From positions 92,186-152,338 of the forward strand of contig NZ_JAUBUO010000016.1 in the NCBI RefSeq assembly GCF_036702645.1: a stretch of 60,153 bases of DNA, in the 5' to 3' direction. This document shows positions 6,329 through 43,745 of this stretch, piece after piece; within the stretch, counting starts at the first letter, position 1; each line of letters begins with the position of its first letter. The stretch comes from Microcoleus sp. Aus8_D1. Lineage in GTDB: Bacteria > Cyanobacteriota > Cyanobacteriia > Cyanobacteriales > Microcoleaceae. The notes under the pieces were generated by a model. That model was not told the origin of the DNA. It made no database searches and saw only the letters and a list, made by a program, of their open reading frames with translations. The position numbers and the translations under genes were made by a program.

Positions 6329-8992
6329 ATGAATCAAAACCATCACCCCGTTCCTCGATTAGATTTAGCTCCCAAACTGAAGCGTCCTCTTTCTTTGTCG
6401 AATCCTTTAGATTACCTGCGATTGTTATATTGGGTGTTTTTCTTTCCTCAAGCTGTGCGGTGGTATGAGTTTATTTTTGGGGGTGAATCTAATTTAAAAG
6501 ATGCCAAAACGTGGCGAGAAAGGTGGGATTGGTTGCGTCAAAATCCAGTCCAGCGTCAGTTAATTTTGCAAGCTTTGATATTAATACTTGCTATCACTCT
6601 AGGTTTTAATATATTTTTTTTAGGCCTCAGTATTCCTATTAATTGGTGGGTTGTAGTGTTAGGCGTAGGGTTCCCTGTTGCCTATGGCGTGGGGTTGGCC
6701 GTGGAGTTCGGCGTAGCATCCGGTGTGGCATTCGGCATGGCGTTCGGCATGGTTTTGGGCATGACCTACGGCGCGGCCTCCGGCATAGCGTCCAGCGTGG
6801 CGTCCGGCCTGGGGTTAGGCCTGGCATTAGGTATTAGCTTGGGCGTGAGGTCAGGTGTGGGAGTGGGCGTGGCGTCTGCTGTAGGGATGGGTGCGGGGTT
6901 GGGTGTGGGTTTGGGCGTATTGTCCGGTGTGGGTTCCGGCGTGAGGTTTGGCGTGGCGTTGGGCTTGGGGTTAGGATTGGCGTCAGTCGTGGCGATCGCA
7001 CGTCCTGAAAATTGGCTGTTCGCTTTACCGTCTATCCTACTCCAGCGCCAACAGCAAAATAGACAATTTCCTCACATTACCCCGCTTCCCCTTCCTTACC
7101 TGTCTGCTCAAATAGCTAATTGGCTGAGGCGGGATTGGGAAACAGGATTGCACAACATTGACGAACTACTAAAATTTACTCTTCAGTTTATCCCGGTTAT
7201 TAAAGCTGTAAATTGCGTACTAGCAGAGACACCAAAAGACCAAATCATCTATCGCCTCGCTCAATTATCAGAAAATCCTTATGATTGGAATTTAGTGCGT
7301 TTTGCCTCAGCTTCTCTTAGTCAAAAAATGAAGTTAGAAGCAGTGGCAGGTTTTTTCAGCTTCATACCTTGGAAACAACAAATTCAAGCTCGTTTTCAAA
7401 CAGAAATTCGTTTAAATACTCCTGCCCGTGCCTCTGCCGCTGGTTTCTGGTATCTCCACGAACAGGAACCAGACAAAGCTACAGCAGCTTTTGCTGTAGT
7501 CCGAGATTTGCTTTATGGAGAGGAGATGTTTGCCTTAGCGCAAATTCTCACAAGTTGTCACCAAACAGCAGAACTAGCCGAGATTGCCGCCTTGAAACTG
7601 CCACCTTCCCCAAATCCACCTCTGCTTCGCGGGACTACTTGGGAAGCAATTGCCTCTCTGCGTCGGGTAATAGTCGATGTTCAACTTATCCAGAATAGTG
7701 TATCTCTTTTTGCCCGTTCTCTTGCCAGCAACCGAGCATTAGGTCAGCTTAAAACTATCTTAAATCAAGCTGGAGTTATACCTATATCTGAACGAAATTT
7801 AATTGTCAAAATAGTCAAAAAATGGTTAGAGATATTACTGCAATTCACAGTTGAAATAGGAGATATTTCAATTACTCAACCTGTCAGCAACCCCTATACC
7901 ATAGGCGATCCAGTCCAAGGCAATCAGTTTGTCGGCCGCGAAGACATCATCAGAGAGCTAGAGGAGTTGTGGGTACAGGGCGATCGCCTGCAATCTGTTG
8001 CTCTCTACGGTCATCGGCGGATGGGGAAAACTTCAATTTTGTTGAATGCTAGCAACTGCCTCGGAGCAAAGGTACAGGTAGCCTATGTCAATGTGTCGCT
8101 GGTGGCAGATTGTTCTCAGGGAGTCGGCGAATTGCTCATATTCGTTACCGATGCCATTGCCAAAACAGTCAAAATTGCACCTCCGGGCGATCGCGATTTA
8201 CTCGATTTGCCCTATATCACTTTTCGACGCTATATCGAACAAGTCATCGGAAATATAGAAGGCGGATTGATCGTTGCTTTAGACGAGTTTGAAAAAATCG
8301 AAGAATTGATCGACGCTGGGAAAATCGATCGCGATTTTATCGGTTTCTTGCGCGGCATGGTGCAAATGAGTTCTAAAATAGCCTTTGCGTTTGCCGGATT
8401 GCACACCTTAGACGAAATGACCGAGGATTATTTCAATCCTTTTTTTGCTAGCATTATCCCCATCCGAGTCGGTTTCCTGAGTTTGGGTGCAACTCGCCAA
8501 GTTTTAGCCAATCCCGATGATGATTTCCTCCTCGACTACAAACCGGAAGCACTCGATCGCATTTACGAACTAACAGGCGGCCAACCCTATCTCACGCAAT
8601 TAATCGGATTTCTATTAGTCCGCCACTACAACGACCAAGTATTTGAAATGGGACACCCCCGCGATCCAATGTTTAGCATAGAAGATGTGGAAACAGTCAT
8701 CAATGACCCGGATTTTTTCAGCAGAGGTCGCTACTATTTTACAGGAATTTGGGGTCAAGCAATGGAAGGTGCACCGGGACAACAGCAGATTTTAAGAGCA
8801 CTAGCACCTCACTTAGACGGAATGAATTTCGACAGGCTGAGTGCAGAAATAGGGATGGATAGAAAAAGTTTAGAGGAAGCATTAAAAACCCTGGAACGTC
8901 ACGATGTGGTTCAACAAAGTGATGGTTGCTACTGTATTAGTGTGGAACTATTTCGCCGTTGGGTTCAGATGTCATTGGGAGGGAACGGGTAA
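6329..8992 (+). CDS. Large membrane-anchored AAA-like/STAND-type NTPase. N-terminus has Gly/Ala/Val-rich small-residue TM helices; the C-terminal half carries an ORC/Cdc6-like P-loop ATPase
   Basis: Residues ~75-230 are hydrophobic GxxxG-rich repeats (GVGFPVAYGVGLAVEFGVASGVAFGMAFGMVLG...). Later come FVGREDIIRELEELW, Walker A GHRRMGKTSILLN and Walker B LIVALDEFEKI, typical of the cyanobacterial AAA-like domain family. Confidence 0.75.
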   Translation: MNQNHHPVPRLDLAPKLKRPLSLSNPLDYLRLLYWVFFFPQAVRWYEFIFGGESNLKDAKTWRERWDWLRQNPVQRQLILQALILILAITLGFNIFFLGLSIPINWWVVVLGVGFPVAYGVGLAVEFGVASGVAFGMAFGMVLGMTYGAASGIASSVASGLGLGLALGISLGVRSGVGVGVASAVGMGAGLGVGLGVLSGVGSGVRFGVALGLGLGLASVVAIARPENWLFALPSILLQRQQQNRQFPHITPLPLPYLSAQIANWLRRDWETGLHNIDELLKFTLQFIPVIKAVNCVLAETPKDQIIYRLAQLSENPYDWNLVRFASASLSQKMKLEAVAGFFSFIPWKQQIQARFQTEIRLNTPARASAAGFWYLHEQEPDKATAAFAVVRDLLYGEEMFALAQILTSCHQTAELAEIAALKLPPSPNPPLLRGTTWEAIASLRRVIVDVQLIQNSVSLFARSLASNRALGQLKTILNQAGVIPISERNLIVKIVKKWLEILLQFTVEIGDISITQPVSNPYTIGDPVQGNQFVGREDIIRELEELWVQGDRLQSVALYGHRRMGKTSILLNASNCLGAKVQVAYVNVSLVADCSQGVGELLIFVTDAIAKTVKIAPPGDRDLLDLPYITFRRYIEQVIGNIEGGLIVALDEFEKIEELIDAGKIDRDFIGFLRGMVQMSSKIAFAFAGLHTLDEMTEDYFNPFFASIIPIRVGFLSLGATRQVLANPDDDFLLDYKPEALDRIYELTGGQPYLTQLIGFLLVRHYNDQVFEMGHPRDPMFSIEDVETVINDPDFFSRGRYYFTGIWGQAMEGAPGQQQILRALAPHLDGMNFDRLSAEIGMDRKSLEEALKTLERHDVVQQSDGCYCISVELFRRWVQMSLGGNG

Positions 8993-9382: not shown

Positions 9383-9706
9383 TCAAATCCCTTCTTCCTC
9401 TTCACCGCTAGACTCGCCTGAAAAAAGTAATTCTATATCCCGATAACCGCTGACTATTCTCACAATTTCAATATTTCCACTGACAGCTCGATAAAAAATC
9501 AAGTAATCTTCTACTAAAAAACTCCGCAAACCCAGCTCCAATTCATCCCGACTTCTCCCTATACTTGGAAAATCAACCAATAACTTGCACTGCTGCTTAA
9601 TCGCTTCCTTGAGTCTTTTCGCAGAATCCGGGTTAAACTGAGCAATATAGCGGACAATCTCTTTCAATTCACGCTTCGCTGAAGGTGCTAAAATATACCG
9701 AGTCAT
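9383..9706 (-). CDS. parE: Type II toxin, ParE/RelE family
   Basis: MTRYILAPSAKRELKEIVRYIAQFNPDSAKRL...YLIFYRAVSGNIEIVRIVSGYRD matches the ParE toxin fold pattern. Overlaps the upstream antitoxin gene by 1 nt. Confidence 0.8.
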   Translation of the reverse strand: MTRYILAPSAKRELKEIVRYIAQFNPDSAKRLKEAIKQQCKLLVDFPSIGRSRDELELGLRSFLVEDYLIFYRAVSGNIEIVRIVSGYRDIELLFSGESSGEEEEGI

Positions 9707-10014
9707 TACTTGACCTCCTCAGCTTGCTGCATTTGCGCCTCTATCCGACAAATATCTTCCTCGATTTCATCAAATACCTCTTCGCCATCAATCCCTTCAC
9801 CGCGATCTAATTCTTCTATCCCTACTCGAATTTTTTCCTTCAAGTCAGCAAGACGCTTCTCCTTAATGCGATCGCGCTCCCACAACAACCGCAAAGCTTC
9901 CCCCACCATCTCACTCGCTGAGGAATATTTACCTTTTTTTACCTGTTCTTGGATTAACCGTTCGAGTTCTGAAGTCAAAGATATATTCATCACAATTTGC
10001 TCCGCTATCGACAT
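9706..10014 (-). CDS. parD: Type II antitoxin, ParD family
   Basis: NISLTSELERLIQEQVKKGKYSSASEMVGEALRLLWERD is the ParD antitoxin signature. Start could instead be Met9 at 9990. Confidence 0.75.
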   Translation of the reverse strand: MSIAEQIVMNISLTSELERLIQEQVKKGKYSSASEMVGEALRLLWERDRIKEKRLADLKEKIRVGIEELDRGEGIDGEEVFDEIEEDICRIEAQMQQAEEVK

Positions 10015-11283: not shown

Positions 11284-13491
11284 TCACACTCTCTTCTGAT
11301 TTTTACTCGGACTTTGTACTTGAGTGTACGACTCATTCGTAAAATAATAATGACTGTGCGGTTCATTCTTCGGACTCACCCCATTCACTACCATACCGAG
11401 TACGTGTTGACTAGATTTCTTTAACAAATCTTTAGCAAAAGCCACACTACCAGAATACAGCACTCCCGGCCGCGCCACCAATAAAATACCATCTGCCTTT
11501 TTACCCAGGATCAGAGCATCAGCAGCTACGTTCAAAGAAGGACTATCAATAACGACTAAATCGTAATTACTCGAAAATTGTTTAATTAATGAAGTTATCC
11601 GCTGCGATTCCAATAGAGCCATTGGGTTAGGCGGAATCACCCCACAACTGAGCACATCTAAATTATCCATCACTTGGGCGATCGCACTTTTCAACTCAGC
11701 TTGTCCCACAATCACATTGCTCAAACCCACCTGATTAGCAAGTTCCCAAATTCGGTGCTGAACCGGGCGGTGCATATCCGCATCTACCAGCAAAACCCTT
11801 CGTCCCAATTGAGCCACCGTCGCAGCCAAATTAGCAGCTACCGTAGACTTCCCCTCATGCGGGAGTGAACTGCTAACCACAATCACCTTTAGTTGTGTAT
11901 CCGAACTAAGAAACCTCAGATTTGCTTGAAGCATCCGGTAAGCAGCACTGACATTAGTGTGAGGAGTATCTTTCACAACAATTTGTCGAGAAGATGGTTC
12001 CGAATCCCCAGCACCAGAACTAGGCCGCAGGAAATTTCGCCAGCTATTTTTTTGAAATTTATGAGCAGGAATCACGCCCAGCAAGGTGAGTCCAAACAAT
12101 TCCTTTGCTTCCTCAATAGTTTTGACAGATTTGTCTTGAGATTCTAAAGCTATAGCCGTAGCTATACCTAGCAAGGTTCCCAGCAAACTACCCGAAACTA
12201 GCAATAGAGATTTGCGAGAAGCAATTGGTTCTTGAGGAACACTAGCTTTTTGGATAATGCGAGCGTTACCCACTTTCTGACTTTCTGCGATCCGAATTTC
12301 CTGAAGTTTTTTTTGCAATTCTGCATAAGCAGATTCGGTTTCTTGCAGTTTTCTGGATAGCTCGCGCTGTTCTTTCTCCAGCTTGGGCAAATTATGTACC
12401 CGCTGCTTGTAGCTAGCTAGCGCGTTTGATAAAATAGAAACTCGCTCAGCTAAACCTTGCCGCTCTACATCTACTTTGACAAACTCTTCGATCAGTCTTG
12501 GCTTCACTTCTCCTATCTGCAAATTTCCGTCATACCCTTGTTGCTGACCACCCGGAACCTGCTGTATTTGCTTGTCCAGTAGAGCTTTCAGGGTAGATTT
12601 CTTAGTTTCTAGCCTAGTTATTATAGGTGAAGTATCCAGATAGCGATTTTGCTCGAGTTTCAACTGCCGTTCTATCTGCTGGTATTCTTTCAAAGCTTCC
12701 TGCACAGCACTAGACTGGCTGAGGTTGCTCGCAGTTAATGCCTGCTGCGGATTCATCTGCAATTCTTTTTGGAATGCTTCGGACTTAGCACTTGCTTTGA
12801 CAAAATCCGACTTAGCGTCATCTATTTGGCTTTCTAAACGCGCCATAACTGACACGGCAGATCTAGCTTCTTCTTCTAAATTAACTACTTTATTGCCTTC
12901 TTTAAATCTGCTCAGTTCTGCTGCGGCTTTCCGCATTGAGTTTTCAGCAGTAGGTAATTTTTTTTCAATAAACTGGCGGACAGCCACAGCTTCTAGTCGA
13001 TTGACTTGGACATTATTTTCTATATAAAAATCCATCATGTTCTTGACAACATCTGCGGCTTCTTTGGATTTTTTACTTTTGTAAGAAACCGTCAGGATAT
13101 CTGCTCCCCGAATAGTTGTCACTGTCAGGTTTTTCAAAAAGCTTTTGCTTGTTAGAGGGTCGCCTTTTTGATCCTTGAGGTTGAGCTTGTTTATGGTCTT
13201 TGCTGCAAGTTCAACAGAACGAATTAGCTCGATTTCGGTAGTCAAGGGGTTGCTTTGCTCTGCTGCTGGAGTCAACTGTCCTATTTCTTTTCCCAATTCT
13301 GTTAAAGCAGAGGCAGGATTTGTCTTTTTAAATAAAAGCTTGCCTTCGGCTTCATAGACAGGCTTTTCCTTGAGTACACTATAGCTAGTTAATGCGAGAA
13401 CCGAGGCAAATACGACTAAGGCGGGCAGCCAGCGCCGCTTGATAATTTGCCAGTATTGCTGAAACCCTATACCAGTTTCTGCGGACTCCAT
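11284..13491 (-). CDS. wzc: Polysaccharide chain-length determinant / tyrosine autokinase (Wzc/ExoP/GumC family)
   Basis: N-terminal TM followed by Wzz-like coiled-coil periplasmic region. C-terminal P-loop kinase VIVVSSSLPHEGKSTVAANLA...LLVDADMHRP and Y-rich tail. Confidence 0.85.
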   Translation of the reverse strand: MESAETGIGFQQYWQIIKRRWLPALVVFASVLALTSYSVLKEKPVYEAEGKLLFKKTNPASALTELGKEIGQLTPAAEQSNPLTTEIELIRSVELAAKTINKLNLKDQKGDPLTSKSFLKNLTVTTIRGADILTVSYKSKKSKEAADVVKNMMDFYIENNVQVNRLEAVAVRQFIEKKLPTAENSMRKAAAELSRFKEGNKVVNLEEEARSAVSVMARLESQIDDAKSDFVKASAKSEAFQKELQMNPQQALTASNLSQSSAVQEALKEYQQIERQLKLEQNRYLDTSPIITRLETKKSTLKALLDKQIQQVPGGQQQGYDGNLQIGEVKPRLIEEFVKVDVERQGLAERVSILSNALASYKQRVHNLPKLEKEQRELSRKLQETESAYAELQKKLQEIRIAESQKVGNARIIQKASVPQEPIASRKSLLLVSGSLLGTLLGIATAIALESQDKSVKTIEEAKELFGLTLLGVIPAHKFQKNSWRNFLRPSSGAGDSEPSSRQIVVKDTPHTNVSAAYRMLQANLRFLSSDTQLKVIVVSSSLPHEGKSTVAANLAATVAQLGRRVLLVDADMHRPVQHRIWELANQVGLSNVIVGQAELKSAIAQVMDNLDVLSCGVIPPNPMALLESQRITSLIKQFSSNYDLVVIDSPSLNVAADALILGKKADGILLVARPGVLYSGSVAFAKDLLKKSSQHVLGMVVNGVSPKNEPHSHYYFTNESYTQVQSPSKNQKRV

Positions 13492-14047: not shown

Positions 14048-16855
14048 ATGAACCGGATAATCAGAAAAATCAGCCAAGGTTTGCTGAGATTGAGGAACCG
14101 TCATTTTTTGTTGATTGACACGATTTGTTTGGCGATCGCCCCCGTATTGGCGCTAGCTATTCGTTTAGATGATTCTTTTACTCTTGCACCCTACTTGTAC
14201 GGGCTAGCGGTAGCTACGGTATTGTTCGTTGCAGTAAAGCTAACTGTATTTTATAGCTTCGGGTTCTACAGGCGTTACTGGCGGTATGCCGGTATTGACG
14301 AATTGGCACAAATAGCGGTGCTGATCGGTGTGGCTTTAGCCTTAGAAACTATACTGTTCCAAGGGCTGGCTCACCTGAGTATTTTTGGGGTCAACAAACT
14401 GCCGCGATCGCTGCCACTGCTCGATGCGATGCTGAGCTTTTTGTTTATTGGCGGCATTCGTTTCAGCATTCCCGCGATCGAAAGGTTGAGCCAAAGACGC
14501 CGGAAATTTCAGCGGTGCGATCGCTTGCTGATAGTCGGTGCAGGGAGTGCAGGCATTTCTTTGATGCAGAAAATGCAGCGGAGTTCCCAGCTAGGACTTT
14601 ACCCCGCAGCTTTCATTGACGACGACCCGAAAAAGCTCAACTTGCGGATTCGCGGAGTAAGTGTAGTAGGCGATCGCCATCAAATTCCCCAAATAGTTAG
14701 GTCGTTAAATATCTCTAAAGTTATCATTGCCATACCCACAGCCCCGGGAAGAGAAATTAGAGAAATCGTAGAAATTTGTCAGTCAATTGGAGTGCCAACC
14801 AGTACACTGCCCGGTATCAATGAAATCATCAACTGCCGCGTCAGCTTGGGCAGCGTCAGGGAAGTACAAATTGAGGACTTGCTCCGTCGCGAATCCATCC
14901 AAACTGATGTCGAGAAAGTTTCCGAATTTATCATAGGCAAAAAAGTTCTAATTACCGGAGCTGGTGGCTCGATCGGCAGCGAACTTTGCCGACAAGTTTT
15001 AAAATCAGAACCTGCGGAAATGATCCTTGTAGGACACGGAGAAAACTCTGTATTCAACATTCAACAAGAACTAAACCGGGTGATTTCCCAACTCCAAAAA
15101 GCAGGCGAACTCAAAATACATATCCCTCAATTAACAACATTCATAGCCGATATTCGCTTTGTCGATCGCTTAGAGTACGTGTTTGACAAAGTTAGACCAG
15201 ATATTGTGTTTCACGCGGCGGCTCACAAACACGTACCCATGATGGAATTAAACCCGCCTGAAGCCATTACTAATAATGTGCGGGGAACAAAAAACCTGTT
15301 GGATATGGCATTGAAGTACGATGTCGAACATTTTGTGATGATTTCGACTGACAAGGCCGTGAATCCAACTAACATTATGGGCGCCAGCAAAAGAGTTGCA
15401 GAAATGCTGGTGCTGCAAGCTGCAAAAAAAAGCGGGAAACCCTTTGTAGTTGTACGTTTTGGCAATGTTCTCGGCAGTCGCGGCAGCGTCGTCCCCACCT
15501 TCAAACGGCAAATTGCTGAAGGCGGCCCGATCACCATTACCCATCCAGATATCAGCCGGTATTTCATGACAATTCCCGAAGCAGTGCAACTGCTGTTGCA
15601 GGCGGCAGTGCTCGGTGACGGGGGTCAAGTATTCATGCTCGACATGGGGCAGCCAGTCAGAATTGTTGACTTGGCAAAAGATTTAATTCGCCTTTCGGGA
15701 TATGAGTTGGGCAAAGACATTGATATTGTCTTCACGGGGCTGCGGCCTGGAGAAAAATTGTTTGAAGAACTGTTTATTCCCGGGGAAACCTACGACAAAA
15801 CTGAACATGAAAAAATTCTGATTCTCGGCAATGCCAGCCGCATTGTCCGAGAAAATATTGAGCAGGACATAGAAGCCCTTTGTCAAGCAGCTCATCGAAA
15901 TGATGCCAATTTAATTGTGTTTTTGCTAGAGCAGTTAGTGCCTGAATACATACCGGGATATTCAACTGTTAATTTGCACGCCAATATAGCCCAAGAAAAA
16001 ACGGATATCGCAGAAAATTCTCCGCAGGTTCAGACAAATTCCAACAGTGTTGTATCTGTTGACGTAGAGAATGATTTGAGGCAAGCTCTTAAACTTCAGG
16101 AGTTTCGCCTTTACTATCAACCGATAGTATGCCTGGAAACTCATAAGATTACAGGTTTTGAGGGGCTGCTGCGCTGGCAGCACCCGACTCGTGGATTTCT
16201 TGTCCCAGACGAGTTTATTCCAGCGGCAGAAGCCACGGGGTTGATTGTGCCTATTGGCGAGTGGGTGTTGCGTCAAGCTTGCAGCCAGTTGCGAATTTGG
16301 CAACAGCGATTTGATATTGACGATCCCTTAACAGTCAGCGTGAATCTGACTAGCAAACAGTTTTTCCAACCTGATTTAAGCGAGGTACTCTACCAAATTC
16401 TAACGGAAACTAAGCTTGATGCTTCTAGTTTAAAGATAGAGATTCCGGAGCAAGTTGCGATCGACAATTCTGAGCTAGCTACCGCTGTGTTTGTTAAACT
16501 CAAAGCTTTAGGGGTGCAATTGCAAATCGATCACTGCGGTTTGAGCGATCGATCTTTAACTCGCCTCCACCGCTTGATACGCATGAAGTATGGGAAGTTC
16601 GACAGTTTGAAGCTAGATTGTTCTGTGGTCAGCGGGCTGGAGGGTAATGACGCTAACTTAGAAACTCTCCAAAAAATTATTGCGATCGCGCAGGAGCTAG
16701 ATATGGGTATGATTGCAACTGGGGTGGAAACCTGCGAGCAAATAGCTCAGCTCAAAGCGCTGAAATGCGTCTACGGCCAGGGATACTTTTTCTCGAAGCC
16801 CGTGGAAGGCTCTAAGATAGAGACATTGATTGGCACTATGACTGCTCATAGTTAA
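14048..16855 (+). CDS. Fusion of a membrane-bound UDP-sugar 4,6-dehydratase (WbpM/CapD/PglF Polysacc_synt_2) with a C-terminal degenerate EAL (c-di-GMP phosphodiesterase-like) domain
   Basis: Four N-terminal TM helices and Rossmann LITGAGGSIGSEL. The EAL domain begins ~16090 (QEFRLYYQPIVCL...FEGLLRWQHP). The DDFGTGYSS motif is replaced by DHCGLSDRS and EAL by EGL. Confidence 0.85.
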   Translation: MNRIIRKISQGLLRLRNRHFLLIDTICLAIAPVLALAIRLDDSFTLAPYLYGLAVATVLFVAVKLTVFYSFGFYRRYWRYAGIDELAQIAVLIGVALALETILFQGLAHLSIFGVNKLPRSLPLLDAMLSFLFIGGIRFSIPAIERLSQRRRKFQRCDRLLIVGAGSAGISLMQKMQRSSQLGLYPAAFIDDDPKKLNLRIRGVSVVGDRHQIPQIVRSLNISKVIIAIPTAPGREIREIVEICQSIGVPTSTLPGINEIINCRVSLGSVREVQIEDLLRRESIQTDVEKVSEFIIGKKVLITGAGGSIGSELCRQVLKSEPAEMILVGHGENSVFNIQQELNRVISQLQKAGELKIHIPQLTTFIADIRFVDRLEYVFDKVRPDIVFHAAAHKHVPMMELNPPEAITNNVRGTKNLLDMALKYDVEHFVMISTDKAVNPTNIMGASKRVAEMLVLQAAKKSGKPFVVVRFGNVLGSRGSVVPTFKRQIAEGGPITITHPDISRYFMTIPEAVQLLLQAAVLGDGGQVFMLDMGQPVRIVDLAKDLIRLSGYELGKDIDIVFTGLRPGEKLFEELFIPGETYDKTEHEKILILGNASRIVRENIEQDIEALCQAAHRNDANLIVFLLEQLVPEYIPGYSTVNLHANIAQEKTDIAENSPQVQTNSNSVVSVDVENDLRQALKLQEFRLYYQPIVCLETHKITGFEGLLRWQHPTRGFLVPDEFIPAAEATGLIVPIGEWVLRQACSQLRIWQQRFDIDDPLTVSVNLTSKQFFQPDLSEVLYQILTETKLDASSLKIEIPEQVAIDNSELATAVFVKLKALGVQLQIDHCGLSDRSLTRLHRLIRMKYGKFDSLKLDCSVVSGLEGNDANLETLQKIIAIAQELDMGMIATGVETCEQIAQLKALKCVYGQGYFFSKPVEGSKIETLIGTMTAHS

Positions 16856-16978
16856 TGGGGAATTTATTGAGAATTTTCAAACTTACTCAATTTCCCCCAT
16901 AAAATAGGTTTATCAGTAGGTTAATCCCAGTCTTATGACTTAGCGATCGCAGAATCAACAGTGGAAGGCAGGAAAATT

Positions 16979-18424
16979 ATGAATTTGGCAAAATATATAA
17001 AGTTTCCTTTGGGGTCAATCTTGTTGTTTGCGATCGCTTCATACCAACCGACTGTTGCTACTGTTCCTTCTAATCAAACCACAGTAACGTATGAAAGCAG
17101 TTCTGAGGATTTTCCCAATCCAGAAAGAGGTTTCTTCGTACCGTTTAACCCTATCGGTAATAACCCAGTTTCTCCCTTGCAGTTATCTGACTTGCAAAAA
17201 GTGAGAACTCAGAACATGAGTTTGGTGCGCAGAATTTACCTGCTTTCAGAATTTCGAGAAAAACCGCTATCACAATCTTTCCTAGAGATGATTTCGCAGG
17301 ACTGCGAGACAGCCCGCCAAGCAGGGGTAAAATTGATTATCAAATTTTCCTACAATTGGCTAGAAGGTGGTTCTGATGCTCCGCGCGACAGAATTATCTC
17401 ACACTTGGAGCAGTTGAGACCAATTTTGGCAGAGAACTACGACGCGATCGCATACATCCATGCAGGTTTTATTGGTTACTGGGGGGAATGGAATCGTTCG
17501 ACCAACAATCTGCTAAATACTCAGGACATGAGAACCATTTTATTTAAAATTTTATCGGTACTTCCAGCAGACAGAATGGTAGCGCTACGTTACTCCAAAA
17601 ATAAAAGAGATATTTATGACAATCAAAATCCCCTTACTCCTGAAGACGCCTTCAACGGTACTTATCGCGCCAGAACAGGTGCTAATAACGAGTGTTTCTT
17701 AGCTAGTATAGATGATTGGGGTACATATATGAGTACAGATCCCACAATTGTAGAAAGAGAAAAGAATTTTTTAAACCTGGATAACAGCTATCTAGTTCAA
17801 GGAGGGGAAACTTGTAACGCTGACAGAGAAGCACAACCTTATATTGGTTGCCTTAATGCTTTAAAAGATTTACGACAAATGCGCTGGAGTGACTTAAACT
17901 CTAGATTTGACCAAGAAGTATTGAAAGTTTGGGAGGATCAAGGCTGTATGCCCGAAATCAAGCGTCGTTTAGGCTACCGCTTTCGTCTTTTGAATTCGGT
18001 GATTCCCCACACAATAAAACCTGGTGGTAGCTTTTCAATAAATTTGACACTTGTCAATGATGGATGGGCTAGTCCATACAACCCGCGACGACTAGAAGCG
18101 ATTTTGCGTAACCGTCAAACCCGAAAAGAATACTATTTGCCAGTACCAGAAGAGCCTCGTCTGTGGATGCCAGGAACTACTAAAATCGTAAATATTAAAG
18201 GTGGTATCCCAGCAAATATACCTCCAGGAGTTTATGAAGTATTATTGAACTTACCAGATCCCACTACCAAATTATATAATCGTCCTGAATATTCAATAAG
18301 ATTTGCTAATCTTAATGTGTGGGAACCATCCACAGGCTATAATTACTTACAAACAAGTGTGATTGTAGCTCCTAAAGCATCAGGAGGTGACTATTCAGGC
18401 AAGGATTTTTTTAGGACACGTTAG
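16979..18424 (+). CDS. Secreted protein, putative glycoside-hydrolase-like (DUF4874/DUF4832-like)
   Basis: Signal peptide MNLAKYIKFPLGSILLFAIASYQPTVA. Conserved YIHAGFIGYWGEWN motif. Start chosen at the ATG after the GGAAGG RBS; the ORF track begins at GTG 16961. Confidence 0.5.
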   Translation: MNLAKYIKFPLGSILLFAIASYQPTVATVPSNQTTVTYESSSEDFPNPERGFFVPFNPIGNNPVSPLQLSDLQKVRTQNMSLVRRIYLLSEFREKPLSQSFLEMISQDCETARQAGVKLIIKFSYNWLEGGSDAPRDRIISHLEQLRPILAENYDAIAYIHAGFIGYWGEWNRSTNNLLNTQDMRTILFKILSVLPADRMVALRYSKNKRDIYDNQNPLTPEDAFNGTYRARTGANNECFLASIDDWGTYMSTDPTIVEREKNFLNLDNSYLVQGGETCNADREAQPYIGCLNALKDLRQMRWSDLNSRFDQEVLKVWEDQGCMPEIKRRLGYRFRLLNSVIPHTIKPGGSFSINLTLVNDGWASPYNPRRLEAILRNRQTRKEYYLPVPEEPRLWMPGTTKIVNIKGGIPANIPPGVYEVLLNLPDPTTKLYNRPEYSIRFANLNVWEPSTGYNYLQTSVIVAPKASGGDYSGKDFFRTR

Positions 18425-18518
18425 GCGATCGTGCAAATAGAAGCTCAAGTGGTTGTAACGATGATGCCGCTAATAAAAAATGAGCGTCCAAAATTAACAA
18501 AAAACGGATCTGTATTTA

Positions 18519-19883
18519 ATGAAAATTTTGCGCTATAAAAAATGGCTAGATTTTTGGAAAAACTTGACAACTGGGTCTCCCAATCGTCAAATTTTAGGTG
18601 CAGCTTTAATAGTTGCTATAGGAACAGCATTAGTCAAATTAGCAGCTTTAGCTAAAGAATTGGCGGTTGCTTGGAAATTTGGCACTACCGATGCCTTGGA
18701 TGCATTCTTAATTGCTTTAGTGATTCCTTCTTTTATAGTTAATGTTGTAGCCAACTCTTTTAATGTTGCACTGATACCTACCTATATTAAAGTACGAGAA
18801 CAAGAAGGTATAACAGTAGCTCAAAAACTTTTTTCTGGAGCCACAGTCTGGAGTCTCGGACTACTAGGAATTACGACTCTAGCAATGGTGATGACTGCAC
18901 CACTGTATTTACCGTGGATTGCAGGTGGGTTCAGTGATGAAAAGTTAGACCTGACATTTAAGCTGCTATGCGCGATCGCGCCAATGGTTCTACTCAGTGG
19001 GATGCTCACTATATGGGGTGCTGTTTTGAATGCAGGAGAGCGTTTCGCTTTAGCAGCTATTTCTCCCATTATTACCCCAGCTATTACTATCATATTATTA
19101 TTGTTAGCCAATTCCTGGGGAGTCTTTGCCTTAGCAGCCGGACTCGTGTTTGGTCAAATATTAGAAATTGTTATTTTAGGAGTGGCATTAAAGAAGCAAC
19201 ACATTTCATTAATGCCAAAATGGTATGGATTTGATACTCATCTGCGTCAGGTAGCTAACCAATATGCTCCGATGATTGCTGGAGGACTTTTAATGTGTAG
19301 TGCCGGCTTGGTCGATCAAGCTATGGCAGCACAATTACCATCGGGAAGTGTGGCAGCATTGAACTATGGTAATCGAATAATTGCCTTGCCGATCACCCTA
19401 ACAACCACAGCCTTAAGCACTGCTGTAATACCATATTTTTCCAAAATGGTTGCGAGTGAAGATTGGAACGCTATACGTCATACATTGAGGCGCTATCTTT
19501 TTTTAATCTTTCTCATAACTGTACCATTGGTAGCATTTTTCTATCTGGGATCTGACAAAATTGTTGAGTTCATGTTCCAAAGAGGGACATTTAGTAGCAA
19601 AGATACTATTATAGTAGCTCAAATACAAGCATTTTATGCCTTGCAGATTCCTTTTTATGTGGCGAATATTTTGGTTGTAAGGCTGATTTCAGCCTTACAG
19701 GCTAATCATATTCTAATGTGGGGATCGGCGATTAACTTAATAGTCAATATCGGCTTAAACTACATTTTCATGAAAGTGCTTGGAATTAGCGGAATTGCAT
19801 TATCTACAAGTTGTTTATATATGATATGCTTGAGTTTTACATCATACTGGTGTTTCTATTTGTTAAGGAGGCAAAATGACTAA
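18519..19883 (+). CDS. MOP-superfamily flippase (MurJ/MviN-like; probable oligosaccharide-unit flippase)
   Basis: Polytopic membrane protein whose N-terminus is typical of MurJ/Wzx proteins. Confidence 0.75.
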   Translation: MKILRYKKWLDFWKNLTTGSPNRQILGAALIVAIGTALVKLAALAKELAVAWKFGTTDALDAFLIALVIPSFIVNVVANSFNVALIPTYIKVREQEGITVAQKLFSGATVWSLGLLGITTLAMVMTAPLYLPWIAGGFSDEKLDLTFKLLCAIAPMVLLSGMLTIWGAVLNAGERFALAAISPIITPAITIILLLLANSWGVFALAAGLVFGQILEIVILGVALKKQHISLMPKWYGFDTHLRQVANQYAPMIAGGLLMCSAGLVDQAMAAQLPSGSVAALNYGNRIIALPITLTTTALSTAVIPYFSKMVASEDWNAIRHTLRRYLFLIFLITVPLVAFFYLGSDKIVEFMFQRGTFSSKDTIIVAQIQAFYALQIPFYVANILVVRLISALQANHILMWGSAINLIVNIGLNYIFMKVLGISGIALSTSCLYMICLSFTSYWCFYLLRRQND

Positions 19884-20694
19884 TAGTAAAGCCAGCAAAG
19901 AATTATGGGATAGCTGGTGGGAAACAGGTGAGCTACCAGAACCAATGAACCCCCACCATCCTCATTTCAGAAATTATCGGGAACTTCGTCTACATCGATA
20001 TTTTTCTGAGATTTTTTCCAAGTTGGATGCAAAGGAGATGCGATTACTTGAAATCGGCTGTGCTAGATCTGATAAGCTTCCATATTTTGCTAAAGAATTT
20101 GATTTTCAAGTTTTTGGTCTAGACTATTCTGAATTAGGGTGTCAACAGGCAGAAAAAATACTGCAAAAAGCTGAAATAAAAGGAAAAATTGTTTGTTCTG
20201 ACTTTTTCAATCCAGCAGAAAATCTATTGGAAAGCTTTGATGTAGTGATTTCCTTTGGTGTTGCTGAACACTTTCCAGATACCGTTGGCTGTATTACAGC
20301 CTTTTCCAGATTTCTCAAGCCTAATGGGATTTTGATTACTCTGATTCCTAACCAGACAGGAAGTATTGGATTTTTCCAGAAAATTTTGGACAGGCAGACG
20401 TATGACATACACGTTCTCTTAGATCAGCATCTACTTCAGCTTGTACATGAAGATGCTGGTTTAAAGGTTAACAAATGCGGTTACTTTATGAGTACGCATT
20501 TTGGGGTGCTAAATTTAAGCCATCTTAATCCACAACATTCAACAACTAAAATAAAGGCTTTTGTGATGAATAGTCTCAGTCGGATTTCTAAATTGGTTTG
20601 GGCTATAGAATACTATACAGCGCCTCTCCCAGAAACTAAGATATTTGCACCATACATTATTTCTGTGGCACAGAAAATAGTTTTGAATCATTAA
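19876..20694 (+). CDS. Class I SAM-dependent methyltransferase
   Basis: LLEIGCARSD motif I and FGVAEHF. GGAGG RBS. Overlaps the upstream gene by 8 nt. Confidence 0.75.
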   Translation: MTNSKASKELWDSWWETGELPEPMNPHHPHFRNYRELRLHRYFSEIFSKLDAKEMRLLEIGCARSDKLPYFAKEFDFQVFGLDYSELGCQQAEKILQKAEIKGKIVCSDFFNPAENLLESFDVVISFGVAEHFPDTVGCITAFSRFLKPNGILITLIPNQTGSIGFFQKILDRQTYDIHVLLDQHLLQLVHEDAGLKVNKCGYFMSTHFGVLNLSHLNPQHSTTKIKAFVMNSLSRISKLVWAIEYYTAPLPETKIFAPYIISVAQKIVLNH

Positions 20695-20742
20695 ACTGTG
20701 TGTTGAAGCTATCTTATTAACTCTAGTTATCATCTAAAAATA

Positions 20743-21858
20743 ATGCGACTGACTTTACTAACTTCATCCCTTTCCTGTGGCGGTGCCGAGCGAGCAGCGA
20801 TTTTGATCGCTGAAGGATTGCTTAAAAAAGGTCATCAAGTTTCCTTTGTAACAATTGCTGGAACCGAGAGAGATTTCTACAAAGTACCAGATGGAGTTCA
20901 TAGATTAGCTCTGGATCTAGCTGGAATTTCACCAACACCATTCCATGCTTTGTGGAATAATCTGTACCGCCTTCGGGTATTAAGACAAACAATTCGAGCG
21001 CTTCAGCCAGATGCAGTCATCTCGTTTATGGCTGAAATAAATATCTTGACATTGTTAGCTCTTACCCAGACAAACTATCCTGTTATAGTTAATGAGCAGA
21101 ATAATCCAGATACTGACACTCAAAACTTGTGGAAGCAATTGCGTCGTTGGATATACCCACGAGCTAACAAAGTGGTGAGCGTCAGTGAAGGAGTCGATAA
21201 TTATTTTGATGACTGGTTGCCAAAAACACAAAGAGCAGTTATCTTTAACCCGTTGCAACCAATTAACGGTGAGACAGGTACGTTCGATTTACCTCAAGGA
21301 GCAGATCCAAATAAAAAATGGGCGATAGCAATGGGTCGTCTGGTATATCAAAAGAATTTTGAACTGCTGCTATCAGCATTTCATAAAATTATCGATCGCT
21401 ATCCAGACTGGCAATTACTGATATTTGGGGAAGGAGAAATGAGAAAAGAACTTGAACATTTAAGAGATCATTTTGGTTTAGGCGAGCAAGTTCTATTGCC
21501 GGGACAAACTAAAAATCCGATCGCAGTTTTCAAATCCTCACAGCTATTCATTTTATCATCTCGTTGGGAGGGATTACCAGCAGTTTTGTTTGAAGCATTA
21601 GCCTGTGGATTACCCGTAGTTTCCACAGATTGTCCTAGCGGGCCACGAGAAATTATCCGCGATGGGGTAGATGGTATATTAGTACCAACCGAAGATATGT
21701 TAGCCTTAGCTACAGCAATGGATTCTTTAATGTCTGATGAAGAAAAGCGAACAACTCTAGCTGCTCGTGCGCCAGAGGTTAAAGAACGGTTCAGCTTAGA
21801 AAAAATAGTAGAAAAGTGGGAAGAATTATTAAAGCAAATTGTGGAGGTTCCGCGATGA
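20743..21858 (+). CDS. Glycosyltransferase family 4
   Basis: GGAERAAILIAEGL N-terminus and C-terminal EGLPAVLFEALACGLPVVSTD. Confidence 0.85.
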   Translation: MRLTLLTSSLSCGGAERAAILIAEGLLKKGHQVSFVTIAGTERDFYKVPDGVHRLALDLAGISPTPFHALWNNLYRLRVLRQTIRALQPDAVISFMAEINILTLLALTQTNYPVIVNEQNNPDTDTQNLWKQLRRWIYPRANKVVSVSEGVDNYFDDWLPKTQRAVIFNPLQPINGETGTFDLPQGADPNKKWAIAMGRLVYQKNFELLLSAFHKIIDRYPDWQLLIFGEGEMRKELEHLRDHFGLGEQVLLPGQTKNPIAVFKSSQLFILSSRWEGLPAVLFEALACGLPVVSTDCPSGPREIIRDGVDGILVPTEDMLALATAMDSLMSDEEKRTTLAARAPEVKERFSLEKIVEKWEELLKQIVEVPR

Positions 21859-22985
21859 GACAAAATGTTGTATTCCTGATCCGGGATTTAAACTATGGTG
21901 GCGCTCAAAGGCAATTAGTCACTTTAGTAAAAGGGCTTAACAAACAAAGCTTCGATGTAATAGTCTTATGCTTTTATCGCGGTGGCCCTTTAGAAAAAGA
22001 GCTTAAAGACAATGAAATCCCACTAATATGTTTGGAAAAACGGGAACGTTGGGATATATTCGGTTTCTTTTGGCGTTTGTTTCAACATCTTAAACACATA
22101 CAACCTGATGTCTTGCACGGATACCTCGGCGAATCAAATGTATTAACAATATTCTTAAAGCCATTATTCCCCTCAACCAAAATGATTTGGGGAATCCGTG
22201 GCAGCAACACCGATCCCGATCTTTACGGATGGCTGGGGCGTGTACTATCTCAGCTAGAGAGTCTTTTATCTCCCTTTGCCGACTCGATCATTGTTAATTC
22301 CCACGCTGGTAAAACCTATTACCTAACACATGGATTTCCATCTGACAAAATGGTGGTAATTCCTAACGGTCTGGATACTAAACGTTTTCAGCCTGATTCA
22401 GAAGCTAGGGCAAAAGTAAGAGCAGAATGGAAAATTTCCGAAAACACTATTCTGATTGGCTTGGTGGGGCGATTAAACCCGATGAAAGACCATCCAAACT
22501 TTCTCAAAGCAGCAGCATTAATCTGCAAACAAAGACAGGATGTCCACTTTGTTTGTGTTGGTACAGGACTGGAAAACTATGCACAGGAATTGTATGAATT
22601 AACGTCTAAATTAGGTATTAATGAACGAGTTATTTGGGCAGGAGCGCGACCAGATATGCCTGCGGTACACAACGCCTTAGATATCGCTACTTCTGCTTCT
22701 GCCTATGGCGAAGGATTTGCTAATGTGATTGGAGAGGCAATGGCTTGTGGTGTACCATGTGTAGTAACAGATGTAGGAGATTCCAAGTGGATTGTCGGAG
22801 ATGCAGGAGTGGTAGTAGCGCCTAGCAATGCTCAAGCTTTATTTGCGGGGTGGTTAGAAATATTACAGATGAATAGAGAAAAGTTATCTATAATGGCTAG
22901 AACACGCATTAAGGAAAATTTCCAAACTAAGGTACTTTATGAAAAAACCGAAAACATATTAATATCTGTAATCAGACAAAGGTAG
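21855..22985 (+). CDS. Glycosyltransferase family 4
   Basis: MRQNVVFLIRDLNYGGAQRQ...EGFANVIGEAMACGVPCVVTDVGD. ATGA start/stop overlap with the upstream GT. Confidence 0.85.
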   Translation: MRQNVVFLIRDLNYGGAQRQLVTLVKGLNKQSFDVIVLCFYRGGPLEKELKDNEIPLICLEKRERWDIFGFFWRLFQHLKHIQPDVLHGYLGESNVLTIFLKPLFPSTKMIWGIRGSNTDPDLYGWLGRVLSQLESLLSPFADSIIVNSHAGKTYYLTHGFPSDKMVVIPNGLDTKRFQPDSEARAKVRAEWKISENTILIGLVGRLNPMKDHPNFLKAAALICKQRQDVHFVCVGTGLENYAQELYELTSKLGINERVIWAGARPDMPAVHNALDIATSASAYGEGFANVIGEAMACGVPCVVTDVGDSKWIVGDAGVVVAPSNAQALFAGWLEILQMNREKLSIMARTRIKENFQTKVLYEKTENILISVIRQR

Positions 22986-22991
22986 TTTGAA

Positions 22992-35855: not shown

Positions 35856-36494
35856 ATGAATAATCACCGATCGCCAATCACCAAATTCAGCAGATTAGTT
35901 AAGTGGGTATTAGATAGATTAGTTGCCGCGATCGCCCTACTAATTTTCTCTCCCATCGTTTTAATAGTGGCGATCGCCATTTACATCCGCATGGGTTCTC
36001 CCGTTGTGTTCACACAACCGAGGCCAGGTAAAGATAGCCACGTCTTCAAGTTCTACAAATTTCGCACGATGACGAGCGATCGCGATCGCGAAGGAAACTT
36101 GCTCCCCGACGAACAACGCCTGACTGCGATCGGTCAATTCTTGCGAAAAACCAGTTTGGACGAACTTCCCCAACTGTGGAATGTTCTCAAAGGCGACATG
36201 AGCTTTGTTGGCCCTCGTCCCTTGTTAGTACGATACCTAGAACGCTACAGCCCAGAACAAGCACGCCGCCATGATGTGATGCCCGGAATCACCGGGTGGG
36301 CCCAGGTGAACGGTCGCCGACTTCTAGATGGTAATTGGCCGGAGAAATTTAGGCTCGATGTTTGGTATGTGGATAATTGGAACCTGTGGCTGGATTTGAA
36401 AATACTTTTCCTGACAGTAGGTCAAGTCTTGGGACAAAAAGAAATCAGCCAAGAAGGTCATCTTACAAGTGAAGAGTTTAAAGGTAATGAATGA
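35856..36494 (+). CDS. Undecaprenyl-phosphate sugar phosphotransferase (PglC/WbaP C-terminal type; priming sugar transferase)
   Basis: Single N-terminal TM; KFRTM, DELPQLWNVLKGDMSFVGPRP. Confidence 0.85.
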   Translation: MNNHRSPITKFSRLVKWVLDRLVAAIALLIFSPIVLIVAIAIYIRMGSPVVFTQPRPGKDSHVFKFYKFRTMTSDRDREGNLLPDEQRLTAIGQFLRKTSLDELPQLWNVLKGDMSFVGPRPLLVRYLERYSPEQARRHDVMPGITGWAQVNGRRLLDGNWPEKFRLDVWYVDNWNLWLDLKILFLTVGQVLGQKEISQEGHLTSEEFKGNE

Positions 36495-37638
36495 AGTCTC
36501 CCCAATGACCAAACAAATCCTCCTCTCAACGCCGCACATGGGCGAACTAGAACAAAAGTTTGTCCAAGAAGCCTTTGACACCAACTGGATCGCCCCCGTC
36601 GGCCCCCATGTCGATGCTTTCGAGCGGGAATTCTGCGATGTTGTCGGTTCCAGCCACGCCGCTGCTCTGAGTTCGGGCACTGCGGCTTTACATTTAGCTT
36701 TACAATTAATTGGTGTCAGTGCAGGCGATGAGGTTTTTTGCTCGACTCTGACGTTTATTGCTACGGCGAGTCCGATTACTTATTTAGGCGCCAAACCGGT
36801 TTTCATTGATAGCGATCGCACTACATGGAACATGAATCCAGAATTGTTGCGAGAAGCCCTGGACAAACGAGCCAAATTAGGAAAGTTGCCCAAAGCTGTG
36901 GCGATCGTACACCTCTACGGTCAAAGTGCCGATATTGACCCTATTTTAGCAGTTTGCAATGACTATGAAATACCCCTAATTGAAGATGCGGCCGAATCCC
37001 TAGGAGCTACTTACAAAAACCGTTCTCCGGGAACTTTTGGCAAAATCGGGATTTTCTCATTCAACGGTAATAAAATTATCACCACTTCCGGCGGCGGAAT
37101 GTTAGTTTCTGACGACCAAAAACTGGTAGAAAAAGCCCGTTTCTTGGCGACGCAAGCCCGCGATCCTGCTCCTCACTACCAACACACCGAAATCGGCTAT
37201 AACTACCGCCTCAGCAACGTTTTAGCGGGGATTGGGATTGGTCAATTGCGGGTTTTGGAGGATAGAGTTGAGGCGAGACGGCACAATTTTGAGGTTTACA
37301 AACAAGCTTTGGGAAATTTGCCGGGAATCGAATTTATGCCGGAAGCTGATTTCGGACGCGCTACTCGCTGGCTGACTTGTTTGACAATTAATCCTGCTGC
37401 TTTCGGTGCGGATAGAGAACTTGTTCGCCTCGCACTGGCGAAGGAGAAAATAGAAGCGCGTCCGGTTTGGAAACCTTTGCATTTGCAGCCAGTATTTGCT
37501 GAGTGTGAATCTATCGGAGGCGAAGTTGCTGAAGAGTTATTTGAACATGGTCTTTGCTTGCCTTCTGGCTCGAATTTAACTGAAGAAGATTTAGAACGAG
37601 TCACCAGTGCGATCGCAGAAATTCATCGAACAGCTTGA
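36487..37638 (+). CDS. DegT/DnrJ/EryC1/StrS-family PLP-dependent sugar aminotransferase
   Basis: Family-typical N-terminus and SFNGNKIITTSGGGML PLP-lysine region. Start uncertain: 36487 (8-nt overlap) or 36505. Confidence 0.85.
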   Translation: MNEVSPMTKQILLSTPHMGELEQKFVQEAFDTNWIAPVGPHVDAFEREFCDVVGSSHAAALSSGTAALHLALQLIGVSAGDEVFCSTLTFIATASPITYLGAKPVFIDSDRTTWNMNPELLREALDKRAKLGKLPKAVAIVHLYGQSADIDPILAVCNDYEIPLIEDAAESLGATYKNRSPGTFGKIGIFSFNGNKIITTSGGGMLVSDDQKLVEKARFLATQARDPAPHYQHTEIGYNYRLSNVLAGIGIGQLRVLEDRVEARRHNFEVYKQALGNLPGIEFMPEADFGRATRWLTCLTINPAAFGADRELVRLALAKEKIEARPVWKPLHLQPVFAECESIGGEVAEELFEHGLCLPSGSNLTEEDLERVTSAIAEIHRTA

Positions 37639-43423: not shown

Positions 43424-43745
43424 AGGGTGTGTCGCCTGCGAAGAATCCCTAACTAAATATCGAAAATCTCAAAGCTCCGCACCTGTCAACTCGCCCGATC
43501 GCCAATAAAGTCGATCGCCTACAATCAAGTATTCGGGTGTGTCGCCACAAAAAATCCTTAGCCAAACATGAAAAATCTCAAAGCGACGCACCTGTGAACT
43601 CGCCCGATCGCCAATAAAGTCGATCGCCTACAATCAAGTATTCGGGTGTGTCGCCACAGAAAATCCTTAGCCAAACATCGAAAATCTCAAAGCGACGCAC
43701 CTGTCAACTCGCCCGATCGCCACTAAAGTCGATCGCCTACAATCA
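43424..43745. repeat. Tandem array of ~3 copies of a 109-bp unit immediately upstream of the NACHT gene
   Basis: acctgt(c/g)aactcgcccgatcgccaataaagtcgatcgcctacaatcaag... recurs at 43481, 43590 and 43699. ORF 43320..43508 and the 43648 start extension are repeat artefacts. Confidence 0.85.

Follow-up and report, generated by a model that had tools for sequence, protein, structure and literature searches.

A stretch of 60,153 nucleotides from Microcoleus sp. Aus8_D1 (contig NZ_JAUBUO010000016.1, positions 92,186 to 152,338; hereafter the window, in whose own numbering all coordinates are given) was analyzed around a gene located at 14048..16855 of the plus strand. This gene is a single, complete open reading frame (ORF) with an ATG start, which encodes a protein of 935 aa that is 100% identical to the NCBI entry 'MULTISPECIES polysaccharide biosynthesis protein [unclassified Microcoleus]'. 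It lies in a polysaccharide cluster of the Wzx/Wzy type. The initial annotation, made from the letters of the sequence, had described the product as a WbpM/CapD-type dehydratase fused to a degenerate EAL domain. This description was borne out by the Pfam, NCBIfam and PDB matches and by Foldseek.

The protein begins with a membrane anchor (residues 1-150, 14048..14497, +), in which the AlphaFold2 (AF2) model placed helices at 17-39, 47-70, 83-109 and 122-150, and its N-terminus is strongly basic (MNRIIRKISQGLLRLRNRH). The four helices are predicted to be transmembrane (TM), and their even number, together with the positive-inside rule, would place both soluble domains in the cytoplasm. Because of the four TM helices and the basic N-terminus, the EAL domain would share its compartment with cyclic di-GMP (c-di-GMP). 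The anchor runs into a Rossmann-like CoA_binding_3 domain (PF13727, residues 71-250, 14258..14797, +, 45.4 bits in Pfam), typical of the large membrane-bound WbpM/PglF/CapD proteins. A short-chain dehydrogenase/reductase (SDR) domain of the Polysacc_synt_2 family follows (PF02719, residues 300-592, 14945..15823, +), with a Pfam score of 390.6 bits for a cut-off of 20.2. A flexible tether (residues 637-670, 15956..16057, +), disordered in the AF2 model with a predicted local distance difference test score (pLDDT) of about 26-32, separates these parts from a full-length EAL domain (PF00563, residues 675-918, 16070..16801, +), which scored 205.8 bits over positions 2-236 of the 236 in the Pfam model. 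No GGDEF, HAMP or PAS domain was found in the protein with Pfam. The full-length model, with a mean pLDDT of 78.9 and a predicted TM-score (pTM) of 0.53, consisted of the four N-terminal TM helices, two Rossmann-type domains, the disordered residues 637-670 and a C-terminal domain of alternating beta and alpha elements.

The SDR part was closest to PglF of Campylobacter jejuni (5bju/5bjv/5bjw; 43-44% identity, TMt 0.87-0.89 in Foldseek). The glycine motif for NAD(P), GAGGSIG, lies at residues 304-310 and was present in all of the 116 full-length homologues over which the residue counts were taken. The same was true of T434, D435, K436, M444 and K448. The first three belong to the sequence S-T-D-K at 433-436, and T434, D435, K436 and M444 are spaced identically to T395, D396, K397 and M405 of PglF, the roles of these residues being read from the titles of the PDB entries of PglF variants. 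M444, the counterpart of Met405, stands where an SDR has Tyr. The Thr-Asp-Lys trio and this Met are part of the likeness to PglF, to WbpM of Pseudomonas aeruginosa and to CapD of Staphylococcus aureus. All three have in common with the query the four-TM region, CoA_binding_3 and the Polysacc_synt_2 SDR, and the likeness extends to the gene neighborhood, in which a DegT aminotransferase and a small Bac_transf protein are encoded. Since every defining feature that a sequence can reveal was present, the enzyme half of the fusion is, on these features, a UDP-N-acetylglucosamine (UDP-GlcNAc) 4,6-dehydratase of the PglF/WbpM/CapD type. It is predicted to make UDP-2-acetamido-2,6-dideoxy-xylo-hexos-4-ulose from UDP-GlcNAc. 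The characterized PglF, WbpM and CapD proteins, however, end about 40 residues past the SDR (~590-665 aa) and carry no signaling domain, whereas the query adds the tether and a 260-aa EAL part.

The initial annotation had itself named an alignment with known EAL domains as one way to check this part, and had allowed that the domain might prove not to be an EAL fold. An alignment with TBD1265 and MorA was made, and the Pfam score given above and the structural comparison both identified an EAL fold. The C-terminal part of the AF2 model was superimposed by Foldseek on the EAL-c-di-GMP complex of TBD1265 (3n3t) with TMt 0.90 and 37% identity, and the rmsd to 2r6o/3n3t was 2.4-2.9 Å. In a phmmer search of the PDB, the EAL half reached E = 1e-47 to MorA and TBD1265, and only 1e-14 to FimX. 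Among the NCBIfam models, it scored 226 bits for DibA, 197 bits for the cyanobacterial Tlr1612, 50.1 for LapD and 44 for TipF. Orthology to LapD or FimX was not found, the LapD score lying far below its cut-off of 1020 and the HAMP-GGDEF-EAL and REC-PAS-GGDEF-EAL architectures being absent.

Catalytic and binding residues of the EAL domain

The EAL domain of the query was aligned with TBD1265 and MorA, and the numbering of TBD1265 was anchored on DDFGTGYSS = 646-654. With this anchoring, each of E523, R527, E546, N584, E616, K667, E703 and Q723 coincided with a residue of the type expected for it, and the motif coordinates of the query were checked by translation. The substrate-contact Gln was retained in YQP (residues 690-692), and both E523 (the first-metal Glu) and the phosphate-binding Arg R527 had their equivalents in EGLLR, the ExLxR motif (residues 705-709, 16160..16174, +). 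The equivalents of E546 in AAE (726-728), of N584 in SVNLT (N766, in 764-768), of E616 and E619 in EIPE (E798 for E616, in 798-801), of K667 in KLD (855-857) and of Q723 in QGY (Q911, in 911-913) were also present. The initial annotation had listed EIPE and KLD among the retained motifs, which was correct. It had also claimed the Asn, which is indeed kept, although its motif reads SVNLT and not SVNLS.

The losses were concentrated in two places. In loop 6, DDFGTGYSS is replaced by DHCGLSDRS (residues 828-836, 16529..16555, +), just as initially read. D828, the equivalent of D646, is kept in this degenerate loop, and the second-metal ligand D647 (D296 of RocR) is lost to H829. In the second place, TGVE stands for EGVE (residues 891-894, 16718..16729, +), so that T891 replaces E703 (E352 of RocR), and E894 retains E706 (E355 of RocR). 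Mutagenesis of TBD1265 has shown that E703A abolishes activity and that E706A has no effect (PMC12943098). Hence, the Glu of GVETCEQ, which had been taken for a retained catalytic Glu, aligns with the dispensable one, and the absence of the essential one at Thr891 had been overlooked. Nor is EGL in place of EAL a sign of degeneracy, as had been proposed, since the Glu is kept and the middle residue is not catalytic. EAL is spelled out in 110 of the 116 relatives, and EGL is a quirk of the strain group of the query.

The same pattern was observed throughout the family. At position 647, the homologues have H (57), N (41), Q (13), R (4) or K (1), never Asp, and at position 703 they have T (78), A (29), V (4), M (2), D (2) or I (1), never Glu. 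Neither position was canonical in seven further divergent representatives or fragments. On the other hand, the YQP Gln, E523, R527, E706 and Q723 were each found in 116/116, the metal-1 ligands E616 and D646 in 115/116 and N584 in 113/116, E546 in 114/116 and the catalytic Lys K667 in 100/116. Across these 116 + 7 members, the nucleotide and first-metal residues are therefore near-invariant while the two catalysis-specific positions drift. The substitutes vary so much (H/N/Q/R/K at one position, T/A/V at the other) that no replacement catalytic set appears to have been fixed, which argues against a new catalytic chemistry.

The catalytic set of RocR comprises E175, N233, E265, E268, D295, K316 and E352 (Seshasayee et al., PMC2952852). 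Following that scheme, the query has six of the seven catalytic-site residues (E352 missing) and three of the four recognition residues (D296 missing). Both second-metal ligands, D647 and E703, are gone, and the domain falls outside the active class I PDE-A phosphodiesterases. It has instead the sequence features of a degenerate EAL receptor, with catalytic residues lost and ExLxR and the other nucleotide-contact residues kept. Since D647 and E703 are missing and loop 6 is scrambled, no second-metal catalysis is predicted. The domain is thus predicted to be inactive as a phosphodiesterase and competent to bind a ligand. The initial annotation had likewise expected no phosphodiesterase activity, and the case is stronger than was then argued, as D647 and E703 are both missing in all 116 + 7 members and E703A inactivates TBD1265. 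With the active enzymes TBD1265, MorA, RocR and Tlr1612, the query has in common the fold, the substrate-pocket residues and the first-metal ligands; unlike them, it lacks D647/D296, E703/E352 and the DFG(T/A)GYSS loop 6 needed for two-metal catalysis. The C-terminal domain would then derive from a phosphodiesterase-type EAL domain that lost catalysis but retained its first metal site and its pocket for c-di-GMP.

A weak or conditional phosphodiesterase activity, by which the domain would serve as a local c-di-GMP sink or as a 'trigger' enzyme at the exopolysaccharide (EPS) machinery, is quite improbable. The near-complete RocR set speaks for it, a His at 647 might conceivably serve as a ligand for a transition metal, and the models of active phosphodiesterases, DibA and Tlr1612, scored far higher than that of LapD. 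However, the single change E703A kills the activity of TBD1265 and position 703 is mostly T/A/V in this family. Position 647 offers no conserved metal ligand, K667 is lost in 16 of the 116 homologues, and loop 6 is scrambled.

Whether the pocket might hold another nucleotide (pGpG, 3'3'-cGAMP or c-di-AMP), or even a UDP-sugar or NAD(P) for feedback control, was also considered. The residues that are kept outline a pocket for a nucleotide and a metal, one side of which is altered by the changes at D647 and in loop 6. They are nevertheless the very residues by which c-di-GMP is contacted in EAL-c-di-GMP complexes, and the closest structural match was the TBD1265 complex with c-di-GMP itself. Moreover, we know of no EAL domain shown to prefer a ligand other than c-di-GMP, which also counts against this explanation. 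It is regarded as very unlikely.

A family-specific insertion of 5-7 residues (…LIRMKYGK…, residues 845-852, ~nt 16580-16603) was found between loop 6 and the KxD motif. In active EAL domains, the region between loop 6 and KxD makes up the dimer and regulatory interface.

Selection and distribution of the fusion

Nei-Gojobori ratios of nonsynonymous to synonymous substitution rates (dN/dS) were calculated for each domain against five orthologues with 73-94% protein identity. The values were 0.06-0.12 for the SDR, 0.13-0.27 for the half formed by the TM region and CoA_binding_3, 0.14-0.26 for the EAL domain and 0.43-1.19 for the 34-residue linker. Furthermore, in the distant half of the family, protein identity fell from 79% in the SDR through 53% in the EAL domain to 19% in the linker. 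The identity of the linker was 19-34% family-wide with zero conserved columns, and 47 of the 244 EAL columns were at least 95% conserved. By these measures, the EAL domain is functional and maintained by selection, and the tether that joins it to the enzyme evolves near-neutrally. The possibility of a decaying relic domain was ruled out by the dN/dS values and by the conserved columns. Purifying selection on the domain, together with the near-invariant pocket and first-metal residues, gives indirect support to a receptor role.

Polysacc_synt_2 and EAL occurred together in every one of the top 120 database clusters, which reached down to 57% identity. More than 120 fusion clusters were counted at 90% identity, one of them from Oscillatoria nigro-viridis PCC 7112, whose genome is complete, and an artefact of assembly or annotation was excluded by this number and by that finished genome. 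The initial annotation had called the fusion a non-standard architecture. This holds for WbpM proteins overall, among which it is rare, but within this cyanobacterial family it is the standard form.

All of the matches with an organism name came from cyanobacteria. The carriers were Microcoleus, O. nigro-viridis PCC 7112, Tychonema, Phormidium, Moorena, Aerosakkonemataceae, Leptolyngbyaceae, Cyanosarcina and Merismopedia, and the fusion was also present in a metagenome-assembled genome (MAG) of Thermosynechococcaceae (L001). When 1.84 billion representatives at 50% identity were searched exhaustively with a profile, only five full-length fusion clusters and two fragments were retrieved. The scores then fell from 1135 bits to 904, a value that already belonged to an ordinary WbpM protein of ~640 aa. 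Because of the few clusters at 50% identity and this drop in score, the fusion forms one compact clade and probably had a single origin. An occurrence outside cyanobacteria was not supported by the genome scan with dehydratase-domain patterns, among the matches listed, nor by the profile search, in which the compact clade was the only fusion; this applies to the members that bear an organism name, so that a carrier from another phylum is improbable rather than strictly excluded. No split version, in which a degenerate EAL gene stands on its own next to a WbpM gene without the fusion, was found in 78 unfused loci, and the single EAL gene near an unfused WbpM gene (L073) encoded a canonical GGDEF-EAL protein. 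In the databases, the fusion bears only the automatic names 'polysaccharide biosynthesis protein' and 'FlaA1/EpsC-like NDP-sugar epimerase/EAL domain-containing protein'.

Long WbpM matches of 2.8-3.9 kb were obtained by tblastn in Anaerolineales, Chloroflexia, Myxococcales and a deltaproteobacterium (L011, L013, L014, L019, L020, L024, L043, L044 and L047), where the first ORF ends ~970 nt into the match (~1,140 nt in L019). Rather than an insertion inside a gene, the likeliest explanation is that the search joined a separate gene for the TM region and CoA_binding_3 with a downstream SDR gene.

Other signaling domains were found on proteins of the WbpM type. In two independent clusters at 50% identity from other clades (P0243 and P0262), a receiver domain (PF00072) occupies the C-terminus, the same place as the EAL domain here. 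These proteins share the scaffold and the position of the input domain with the query. They differ from it in that the input would be phosphorylation, not a nucleotide messenger, and they score only ~620 bits against the family profile. Additionally, WbpM was seen fused to Bac_transf (at the C-terminus in P0259, at the N-terminus in P0134) and to Glycos_transf_4 (at the N-terminus in P0133). Fusions of signaling domains to WbpM-type dehydratases appear not to have been described before.

The surrounding polysaccharide cluster

Divergently from the fusion gene, a gene for a Wzc-like polysaccharide co-polymerase/tyrosine kinase (GNVR and P-loop ATPase domains in Pfam) lies at 11284..13491 on the minus strand. 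The same divergent pair was found in Oscillatoria PCC 7112, in Merismopedia and in three more Microcoleus or Oscillatoriaceae genomes, including an Oscillatoriaceae MAG. Downstream of the fusion gene, a gene for a DUF4874/DUF4832 protein and then one for a flippase of the MurJ/MatE type were recognized with Pfam (16961..19883, +). The former (16961-18424, +), immediately 3' of the fusion gene, encodes 487 aa with an apparent signal peptide and may be a secreted glycoside-hydrolase-like enzyme. Glycosyltransferases of family GT4 follow the flippase, and after them comes an ORF of 447 aa (22992-24335, +) for which there was no Pfam match, even at E <= 0.01. This ORF stands at the place expected for the Wzy polymerase and is possibly Wzy. 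The order WbpM-EAL, DUF4874/4832, MurJ and GT4 is common to Moorena (L081) and PCC 7112 (L083).

Three close Microcoleus strains (L084, L085 and L086), with fusions 93-94% identical, have another set of flippase (of the Polysacc_synt type), glycosyltransferase and Wzy genes in place of DUF4874/4832-MurJ. The pair of the Wzc-like and WbpM-EAL genes thus looks like a conserved anchor beside a serotype-like variable region (16961-24335 in the window).

The cluster also contains methyltransferases, several GT4 proteins, an AsnB-like amidotransferase, an epimerase and a FemAB-like protein. An ORF of 235 aa (30599-31306, +) had no Pfam match even at E <= 0.01. Farther along, an epimerase/dehydratase and a UDP-glucose dehydrogenase were found. 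A PglC-like Bac_transf gene (212 aa; PF02397, 223.7 bits) overlaps a gene for a DegT/PglE-like aminotransferase (PF01041, 338.2 bits) at 35856..37638 of the plus strand.

In PCC 7112, a PAS-GAF histidine kinase of 1137 aa with an ethylene-receptor-like ETR1_N domain is encoded directly beside the Wzc-like gene (L083:3905-7318). This kinase has no counterpart in the window and could regulate the cluster.

In C. jejuni, the dehydratase PglF, the aminotransferase PglE and the phosphoglycosyl transferase PglC make and load the priming sugar. By analogy, the dehydratase of the fusion would supply the precursor of a priming amino-dideoxy-hexose, the first committed intermediate, and the DegT aminotransferase and the PglC-like transferase would convert its product and load it on undecaprenyl phosphate. 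The initial annotation had made the fusion the first committed enzyme of the cluster, which is plausible given that the PglF residues are invariant and that a PglE-like DegT protein and a PglC-like Bac_transf protein are encoded in the cluster.

Proposed role of the fusion and other genes of the window

We consider it somewhat more probable than the alternatives taken together that the inactive EAL domain is a c-di-GMP receptor that gates the supply of the priming sugar by the dehydratase. The domain would bind cytoplasmic c-di-GMP without hydrolysis, its occupancy would alter the output of the dehydratase, and the initiation of a Wzx/Wzy-dependent EPS would in this way follow the level of c-di-GMP. 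How the two halves would be coupled is a matter of conjecture, because the AF2 model shows no confident arrangement between the domains. A change in the oligomeric state of the SDR, the release of an autoinhibition or contacts with partner proteins could each serve, and both EAL domains and PglF-type SDRs dimerize. The effect would probably be an activation at high c-di-GMP, since c-di-GMP generally promotes EPS production and aggregation, in cyanobacteria as elsewhere (2023 review).

The 4,6-dehydratase step is already a known checkpoint, because phosphorylation by the tyrosine kinase CapAB of S. aureus stimulates the 4,6-dehydratase CapE, not CapD (PMC6441080). This precedent and the receiver-domain fusions of WbpM fit the view of the EAL domain as a regulatory module.

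Several observations weigh against a c-di-GMP receptor. Some degenerate EAL proteins, such as YdiV, CsrD and BluF, are not known to bind c-di-GMP. K667 is replaced in the 16 homologues mentioned above, one divergent family member (P0125) lost R527 (R to H) and another (P0123) lost E546/E619, so that not every lineage may bind the ligand. One scheme (PMC2952852) places the lost D296 of RocR (D647) among the residues that recognize c-di-GMP, and binding could therefore be weaker. The low pTM and the disordered tether leave the model without a confident inter-domain arrangement. Neither a diguanylate cyclase gene nor a PilZ gene was present in the window or beside the PCC 7112 orthologue, and no c-di-GMP riboswitch or other RNA element was detected in the window at the Rfam gathering thresholds.

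Some of these points would be accounted for if the EAL domain were, like YdiV, CsrD and BluF, a ligand-blind module for protein interaction or oligomerization that scaffolds the Wzc-like kinase, the PglC-like transferase or the aminotransferase. The constant pairing of the fusion gene with the Wzc-like gene, the lack of adjoining genes for c-di-GMP enzymes and the degeneracy of the catalytic residues and of loop 6, a canonical dimer and regulatory element that is followed here by the insertion of 5-7 residues, would all agree with it. The WbpM-Bac_transf fusions of other clades would likewise show a selection for physically coupled pathway enzymes. Ligand-blind EAL domains, however, typically lose the contacts formed by the YQP Gln, E523, R527, N584, E616, D646, E706 and Q723, which are 97-100% conserved here. 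A nucleotide pocket frozen while two catalytic positions drift freely is not readily accounted for unless nucleotide and metal are bound there. Such a scaffold is considered unlikely, and the receptor that gates the dehydratase remains the preferred reading.

Inactive EAL domains that keep binding determinants of the ExLxR type are known from FimX, LapD, Filp and TipF, which are c-di-GMP sensors that control an output (effector reviews). The query likewise has an inactive EAL domain, predicted here from its sequence, with ExLxR kept, and is not orthologous to them. The output would also be of another kind, a covalently fused metabolic enzyme in place of a protease-sequestering or pilus-assembly switch. 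The query furthermore keeps the whole first-metal site, unlike FimX and LapD, which are largely without it.

Receptors for c-di-GMP that are physically part of an EPS biosynthetic protein, as proposed for the query, are found in BcsA and Alg44 (PilZ), PelD (a degenerate GGDEF) and BgsA (the C-terminal domain) (reviews). These act on the polymerizing glycosyltransferase or the secretion complex of synthase-dependent pathways, whereas the query would carry an EAL-fold candidate receptor on a nucleotide-sugar enzyme that works upstream of the initiation step in a pathway of the Wzx/Wzy type. No nucleotide-sugar enzyme was listed among the receptors in two recent reviews of c-di-GMP effectors, and the fusion was not described in the literature searched, consisting of open-access papers and bioRxiv full texts. 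The architecture was not mentioned in the surveys of c-di-GMP in cyanobacteria that were consulted, the 2013 census of which left out Oscillatoria and Microcoleus genomes. Few effectors are known from these bacteria (the PilZ cellulose synthase, CdgR and ComFB), and they have been called "poorly investigated" (2023 review).

Direct allosteric gating of a first committed nucleotide-sugar enzyme by c-di-GMP through a fused, dead EAL domain, in many filamentous and some unicellular cyanobacteria, is put forward tentatively, with less than even confidence. The proposal is an extension of known themes, the degenerate-EAL receptor and the control of EPS by c-di-GMP, to a new step, in an uncharacterized family whose sequences are already in the databases.

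The family is a candidate, defined by its sequence, for linking c-di-GMP to the synthesis of sheath, EPS or biofilm polysaccharides, and mats, soil crusts and toxic benthic blooms are built by its carriers, which include Microcoleus, Oscillatoria, Phormidium and Moorena. If the proposal is true, control of a nucleotide-sugar dehydratase upstream of Wzx/Wzy would be a new regulatory step, the known control being exerted on synthases or secretion complexes. The fusion would then represent a fourth class of cyanobacterial c-di-GMP effector beside the PilZ cellulose synthase, CdgR and ComFB. Taken together with the receiver-domain fusions in other phyla, the C-terminus of WbpM-type proteins would be a general docking site for signaling inputs. 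The family also offers a natural experiment in which the invariant residues for binding are separated from the drifting residues for catalysis, and the disordered linker between the halves makes assays of the isolated domains straightforward.

Several other genes of the window were also recorded. Four ORFs had no Pfam match at E <= 1e-4, located at 6329-8992 (+, 887 aa), 55211-57547 (-, 778 aa), 57658-58734 (-, 358 aa) and 58958-59920 (-, 320 aa). In the ORF-poor stretch of 2.3 kb upstream of the Wzc-like gene, a ParE toxin of 107 aa and a ParD antitoxin of 102 aa are encoded at 9383-10014 (-). Finally, a STAND NTPase of 1319 aa, with NACHT, HEAT repeats and C-terminal NCAB1/NCC-H modules, was found at 43648-47607 (+), followed at 47751-49202 (+) by a protein of 483 aa with a weak phage-integrase domain. 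Situated where the sugar cluster ends, this pair may represent an island of a conflict system or of a mobile element.

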